The position numbers and the translations under genes are program-made. Positions 22,918-23,304 of a DNA stretch of 64,000 nt are shown here, piece after piece. The notes under the pieces were generated by a model. That model was not told the origin of the DNA, ran no database searches, and saw only the letters and a program-made list of their open reading frames with translations. The stretch lies in the NCBI RefSeq assembly GCF_988243305.1, contig NZ_OZ547136.1; one strand, 5' to 3'. The number at the start of each line of letters is the position of its first letter. Position 1 is the first letter of the stretch.

Positions 22918-23304
22918 ATGCGTAAAAGCCTGTTAGCTATTCTTGCAGTCTCCTCGTTGGTATTCAGTTCGGCGTCGTTTGCCGCTGATCTTGAAGACAA
23001 TATGGAAACCCTCAACGACACTTTAAAAGTGGTCGAAAAAGCCGATAACGCGGCGCAAGTCAAAGACGCGTTAACGAAGATGCGCGCCGCAGCGCTGGAT
23101 GCGCAAAAAGCAACGCCGCCGAAGCTCGAAGATAAATCACCGGACAGCCCGGAAATGAAAGACTTCCGTCACGGTTTCGATATTCTGGTTGGTCAGATTG
23201 ACGACGCGCTGAAGCTGGCAAATGAAGGTAAAGTAAAAGAAGCGCAGGCTGCCGCAGAGCAACTGAAAACGACCCGCAACGCCTATCACCAGAAGTATCG
23301 TTAA
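22918..23304 (+). CDS. cybC: soluble cytochrome b562
   Basis: 128-aa ORF with signal peptide and mature sequence [20 protein letters not shown]...RNAYHQKYR; appears full-length. Confidence 0.92.

Follow-up and report, generated by a model that had tools for sequence, protein, structure and literature searches.

The 64,000-nucleotide (nt) stretch of contig NZ_OZ547136.1 analyzed here (RefSeq assembly GCF_988243305.1; hereafter the window) almost certainly carries an intact chromosomal cybC gene of the kind normal for non-K-12 Escherichia coli, which would encode an exported heme-binding cytochrome b562. The gene, located on the + strand at positions 22918 to 23304, is real, intact and, judging from its sequence, very probably functional; K-12, and not the strain under study, is the exception. 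The integrity of the gene, its membership in the cytochrome b562 family, the conservation of its heme ligands and signal peptide, the purifying selection acting on it and the exact lesion in K-12 were established directly. The cybC of the window is an ordinary textbook gene. Both curated annotation and the literature already record that the gene is disrupted in K-12; the published accounts call cybC a pseudogene, or cryptic, in that lineage and describe it as expressed elsewhere among the strains (PMC3349551, PMC4361602).

The cybC open reading frame (ORF) starts with ATG and comprises 128 codons followed by TAA. It was assigned to a cytochrome b562 precursor from the ORF list, Pfam, NCBIfam and the RefSeq annotation of E. 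coli AR_0017, which gives cybC the coordinates found in the window. The Pfam domain Cytochrom_B562 (PF07361) aligned with residues 24 to 128 over its entire profile (positions 1 to 102 of 102; E = 3.9e-33), and the score of 114.6 bits, for a cut-off of 30, makes this a full-length match above the curated threshold. The NCBIfam equivalog NF011632, "cytochrome b562," was likewise matched over its whole length (profile positions 1 to 127 of 127) with 190.5 bits for a cut-off of 130. In addition, a sequence search of the PDB retrieved the 106-residue chains 1apc, 1qpu and 256b, solved by crystallography or nuclear magnetic resonance (NMR), which match residues 23 to 128 (E = 2.4e-63); among the remaining PDB hits listed, many were BRIL-type fusion chains with the name "Soluble cytochrome b562." Given an ORF at 22918 to 23304 with full-length Pfam and NCBIfam matches, matching PDB chains and a RefSeq annotation, this is a true gene and not a chance ORF. 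The sequence-only reading of this DNA had described an intact 128-residue cybC product with a signal peptide and a conserved mature part, and the ORF, Pfam, NCBIfam and PDB evidence all agree with it.

Since the mature PDB chains cover residues 23 to 128, residues 1 to 22 (positions 22918 to 22983, + strand) are the predicted signal peptide, and the mature protein would begin with ADLEDN. This segment has a basic n-region and a hydrophobic core, and the cleavage motif S-F-A directly precedes ADLEDN. The mature cytochrome b562 of 106 residues is encoded at 22984 to 23301 on the + strand, as delimited by Pfam, the PDB chains and the allele alignment. Two codons on the same strand specify Met29 (ATG, 23002 to 23004) and His124 (CAC, 23287 to 23289), i.e., Met7 and His102 of the mature protein, which are the axial heme ligands in well-established cytochrome b562 structures such as 256B. 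Both are invariant in all five aligned alleles. The end-to-end match to 1apc, 256b and 1qpu, along with 98% identity to the E. coli B protein, points to a four-helix-bundle fold for the protein encoded in the window. Upstream of the gene, a Shine-Dalgarno-like AAGGAAG (22905 to 22911, + strand), whose AGGA core ends 8 nt 5′ of the ATG, is kept across all aligned lineages.

The sequence-only reading also described cybC as annotated as disrupted in K-12 MG1655. This was accurate: the MG1655 record (NC_000913.3) lists cybC (b4236) as a 368-bp pseudogene, and a pairwise alignment showed that 26 bp are missing there, so that MG1655 has no identical intact ORF. The missing sequence, GTGAGCAATGCGTAAAAGCCTGTTAG, occupies positions 22911 to 22936 (+ strand) of the window and was delimited by the alignment with MG1655 and by a multistrain alignment. 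Its deletion takes out the start codon along with the 7 nt on its 5′ side and the 16 coding bases that follow, which costs K-12 cybC the ATG and its first six codons. The resulting K-12 junction, AAGGAA joined to CTATTC, is absent from the window, which keeps all 26 bp. The locus is otherwise orthologous: the 368 bp that K-12 retains align collinearly with the window and differ from it by 10 synonymous and 3 nonsynonymous changes, K-12 having S122 and K125 (precursor numbering) where the window has A and Q. Structural differences between MG1655 and the window at this locus amount to two, namely, the 26-bp deletion and an extra segment of ~129 bp upstream of cybC, present in MG1655. Only the former is the cybC lesion, since the extra segment accompanies a full-length cybC of 128 codons in E. 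coli B (NEBExpress), strain 2452 and an O18:H1 strain. The intact 2452 allele also has S122 and K125, and the K-12 remnant shows 0 differences from it over 363 aligned nucleotides, indicating that the deletion is recent and was not followed by later decay.

The distribution of the two states was determined across 5426 complete E. coli genomes. A 52-nt query, in which the sole possible 28-nt seed spans the K-12 deletion junction, matched 355 genomes, and all 355 matches were 100% identical. The 40 junction records that were sampled were all K-12 or, judged from strain name or genome size, K-12-like (MG1655, W3110-type, DH1, C600, J53, TG1, MC4100, XL10, EC600 and others). The intact state, searched with 52 nt of the window and hence counted for the 5′ end of cybC only, was found in 5067 genomes (~93%), and the two classes together account for 5422 of the 5426. 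Intact cybC is therefore the rule among E. coli; the known exception is K-12, in which the start of the gene was lost to a 26-base deletion. The earlier suggestion that the window strain may retain a functional copy thus holds, insofar as function can be predicted from sequence, but is unremarkable.

Among the closest known systems, the soluble cytochrome b562 of E. coli B (256B, 1APC and 1QPU; the parent of BRIL) is, like that of the window, encoded at a pmbA-cybC-nrdG locus as a protein of 128 residues. An alignment with an E. coli B derivative gave 126 identical residues out of 128, with the same signal peptide and both heme ligands; the two conservative substitutions are N35T and I39V in the precursor (N13T and I17V in the mature protein). 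Overall, the window allele shares 98% identity with those of B, 2452 and O18:H1, and V17 of the mature protein is common to the window, 2452, O18:H1 and K-12 alleles. Pairwise comparisons of the intact alleles yielded 7 to 16 synonymous versus 2 to 4 nonsynonymous differences, and the corresponding pN/pS values of 0.07 to 0.12 indicate purifying selection on cybC across the species. The window protein corresponds to RefSeq WP_001232255.1, which is also the CybC protein of ATCC 8739 and AR_0017. Both strains have the same DNA as the window over 22840 to 23360 and the same short spacer between pmbA and cybC, and ATCC 8739 differs from the window by a single base in an 801-bp stretch, at position 22780 inside pmbA. 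In 1156 genomes, this 801-bp region around cybC has an identity of at least 99%.

Elsewhere, BLAST comparison of AR_0017 with the window revealed insertions and deletions. An insertion of ~1277 bp relative to AR_0017 lies at 4200 to 5476 in the paeA(ytfL)-msrA intergenic region and contains an ORF (4391 to 5371, + strand) for a 326-residue IS110-family RNA-guided transposase (NCBIfam NF033542, 254 bits); identical copies of this transposase bear the RefSeq name "IS110-like element IS621 family transposase" and are present in up to 29 places per genome. Between yjgR and ahr, a five-gene cluster absent from AR_0017 (53477 to 58523) encodes a LacI-type regulator, a GntP permease, a short-chain dehydrogenase/reductase (SDR), a Zn-dependent dehydrogenase and a small sugar-kinase-like protein, an architecture that presumably matches the L-idonate genes idnRTOD-idnK of K-12. 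Near the end of the window, a tRNA-Leu(CAA) gene (59742 to 59826) is followed by a tyrosine integrase gene (60026 to 61294) and by a gene for a 549-residue DptF-like protein (61504 to 63153), annotated as a DNA phosphorothioation-dependent restriction protein (TIGR03238, 439 bits). The region from 59742 to 63153 looks like a tRNA-Leu integration island with a Dnd/Dpt defense module that continues past the end of the window. At the same tRNA-Leu, AR_0017 has a different island with dpdA/B/E/F (Dpd system).

Within its locus, cybC is preceded by pmbA/tldE (21511 to 22863, + strand) and followed by the convergent genes nrdG (23349 to 23813, - strand) and nrdD (23973 to 26111, - strand), and this pmbA-cybC-nrdG-nrdD order is the RefSeq arrangement in ATCC 8739, AR_0017 and MG1655. 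Hairpins flank the gene on both sides. Directly 3′ of the pmbA stop codon, a GC-rich hairpin with a 7-bp stem (GGCGCGA…CGCGCC; 22869 to 22888) folds with -14.4 kcal/mol (z = -2.2). It has no U-tract on the + strand, where read-through from pmbA is therefore possible, and a T-run with a terminator-like hit on the - strand. A second hairpin, with a 14-bp stem and a 4-nt loop, lies between the convergent cybC and nrdG genes (23313 to 23344); folding was computed for both strands and gave -23.3 kcal/mol (z = -6.3) for the + strand and -19.5 kcal/mol (z = -4.0) for the - strand. This hairpin is likely a transcript-end or stabilizing structure for both cybC and nrdG. Since no U-tract follows it on either strand, it is not a canonical intrinsic terminator, and a terminator function is at most putative. 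A scan for sigma-70 consensus promoters over 22700 to 23500 found no site. Considering also that the pmbA-cybC spacer measures 54 bp in the window, expression of cybC may depend on read-through from pmbA; the gene may be either read through in this way or driven by a weak promoter around a CATAAT hexamer at 22895 to 22900.

The length of this spacer is polymorphic in the species. The 11-nt stretch CAAATCTTCAT (22887 to 22897) stands, according to the alignment, where most E. coli have a palindromic dispersed repeat of ~129 bp, and B, O157 and O18:H1 strains have a spacer of about 183 bp. The repeat is thus present in E. coli B and MG1655 at a site where the window is without it, and no copy of it was found anywhere in the window. 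In MG1655 (positions 2337 to 2475 of the compared stretch), it sits between the post-pmbA hairpin and an A-rich stretch before the ribosome-binding site, and it folds as a long imperfect hairpin (-61.5 kcal/mol, z = -8.9). Genomes carry 1 to 6 diverged copies (median, 3); two of the sites are the rhlB-gppA interval and the vicinity of nudB. At the pmbA-cybC site, the repeat was detected at an identity of at least 80% in about 3885 of the 5426 complete genomes; another 1174 gave only paralogues (60 to 80% identity) and 372 gave no match, which places the short-spacer state in roughly 22 to 28% of genomes (roughly 1200 to 1500). An Rfam search in E-value mode of the MG1655 pmbA-cybC-nrdG stretch returned no match to the extra segment. 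The size of the repeat, its palindromic form and its intergenic dispersion fit the ERIC/IRU family, which it resembles without proof of identity: its similarity to an ERIC core reconstructed from the ERIC1R and ERIC2 primers was weak (score of 11 versus 8.1 ± 1.4 for shuffled sequences, with 22 of 500 shuffles scoring as high). Repetitive DNA of another kind occurs in the holC-pepA intergenic region of the window, where a tandem array (47475 to 47770) contains 3.1 copies of a 96-bp unit that match at 93%. The unit consists of REP-like palindromes (GCCTGATGCGACGCT… / …GCCGCATCCGAC), and the array looks BIME-like.

Transcription is the least secure step in the case for this strain, and the absence of the repeat bears on whether cybC is expressed in this lineage. 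The ORF could be intact and yet transcriptionally silent, the missing ~129-bp repeat being a possible contributor of a promoter, an explanation that we regard as very improbable. The spacer of 54 bp instead of about 183 bp and the lack of a promoter-like site in the scanned region are compatible with silence, and the available evidence for expression, namely, that expression of cybC was higher in B REL606 than in MG1655 whatever the condition (PMC3446290), stems from a repeat-bearing B strain; the CybC protein has also been detected in Shigella dysenteriae (PMC3136414). However, the short-spacer form is shared by the many complete genomes estimated above, and differences between the short-spacer coding sequence and the repeat-bearing alleles are mostly synonymous (pN/pS of 0.07 to 0.09), which is unexpected for a silent gene. 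Furthermore, both the CATAAT hexamer and read-through past the post-pmbA hairpin may offer routes to transcription. A related proposal is that presence or absence of the repeat constitutes a natural regulatory polymorphism, with short-spacer cybC expressed mainly by read-through from pmbA and not from its own promoter; we consider this unlikely, though if it were true, short-spacer strains would have a different expression program for cytochrome b562.

Two other explanations concern the alleles themselves. It is very improbable that the contrast with K-12 is not a real one, i.e., that the K-12 allele still works from an alternative start codon. The NCBI pipeline PGAP does annotate, in the K-12 derivative BW2952, a 121-residue "cytochrome b562" coding sequence (CDS) (WP_023649327.1; positions 728 to 1093 of the compared stretch) that starts at an ATT directly after the deletion and carries no pseudogene flag, and the remnant is free of further mutations relative to the 2452 allele. 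Such a CDS is nonetheless unlikely to be a working gene, since ATT is a very weak start, lies only 3 nt past the GGAA of the ribosome-binding site, and leaves the product without the basic n-region (MRK) of the signal peptide, which was lost along with the ATG. The in-frame sequence upstream of the remnant in MG1655 offers no ATG, GTG or TTG and meets a stop five codons before the ATT. The pseudogene status in the curated record, the cryptic state described in the literature and the lower expression in K-12 than in B (PMC3446290) likewise speak against a working allele. Annotation of cybC in K-12 is thus inconsistent, an automatic CDS in BW2952 facing a curated pseudogene in MG1655, and the junction match was labeled "cybC: cytochrome b562" in every sampled K-12 record. 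As for the window allele, the two helix 1 substitutions relative to the structurally characterized B protein raise the question of whether the N13T/I17V variant is functionally impaired despite its open frame. This is extremely improbable, given that neither site is a heme ligand, that V17 recurs in the 2452, O18:H1 and K-12 alleles, and that ATCC 8739 and AR_0017 share this protein accession, within a region so widely conserved among complete genomes.

The preferred reading remains that of a normal cybC gene whose product would follow the usual course for this protein. Cytochrome b562 contains a noncovalent heme b and has its reduced alpha-band at 562 nm. In the window strain, cybC would be expressed and its mRNA translated from the ATG at 22918 by means of the AAGGAAG ribosome-binding site. 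The 128-residue precursor would then be exported through the Sec pathway, and its 22-residue signal peptide would be cut after SFA, before ADLEDN. The remaining 106 residues are predicted to form a four-helix bundle holding one noncovalent heme b via Met7 and His102, and the mature protein may act as a soluble periplasmic one-electron carrier or heme-binding protein.

The significance of finding cybC intact here is very small. What the comparison adds is a definition of the K-12 lesion as a single 26-bp deletion, without further decay and confined to the K-12 lineage, together with the frequencies of the cybC states over 5426 complete genomes. It also reveals that automatic annotation of K-12 derivatives masks the defect through the 121-residue ATT-start CDS. 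Work that uses K-12 as a null strain for b-type cytochromes of the periplasm should take into account that most other E. coli, the window strain included, are not null.
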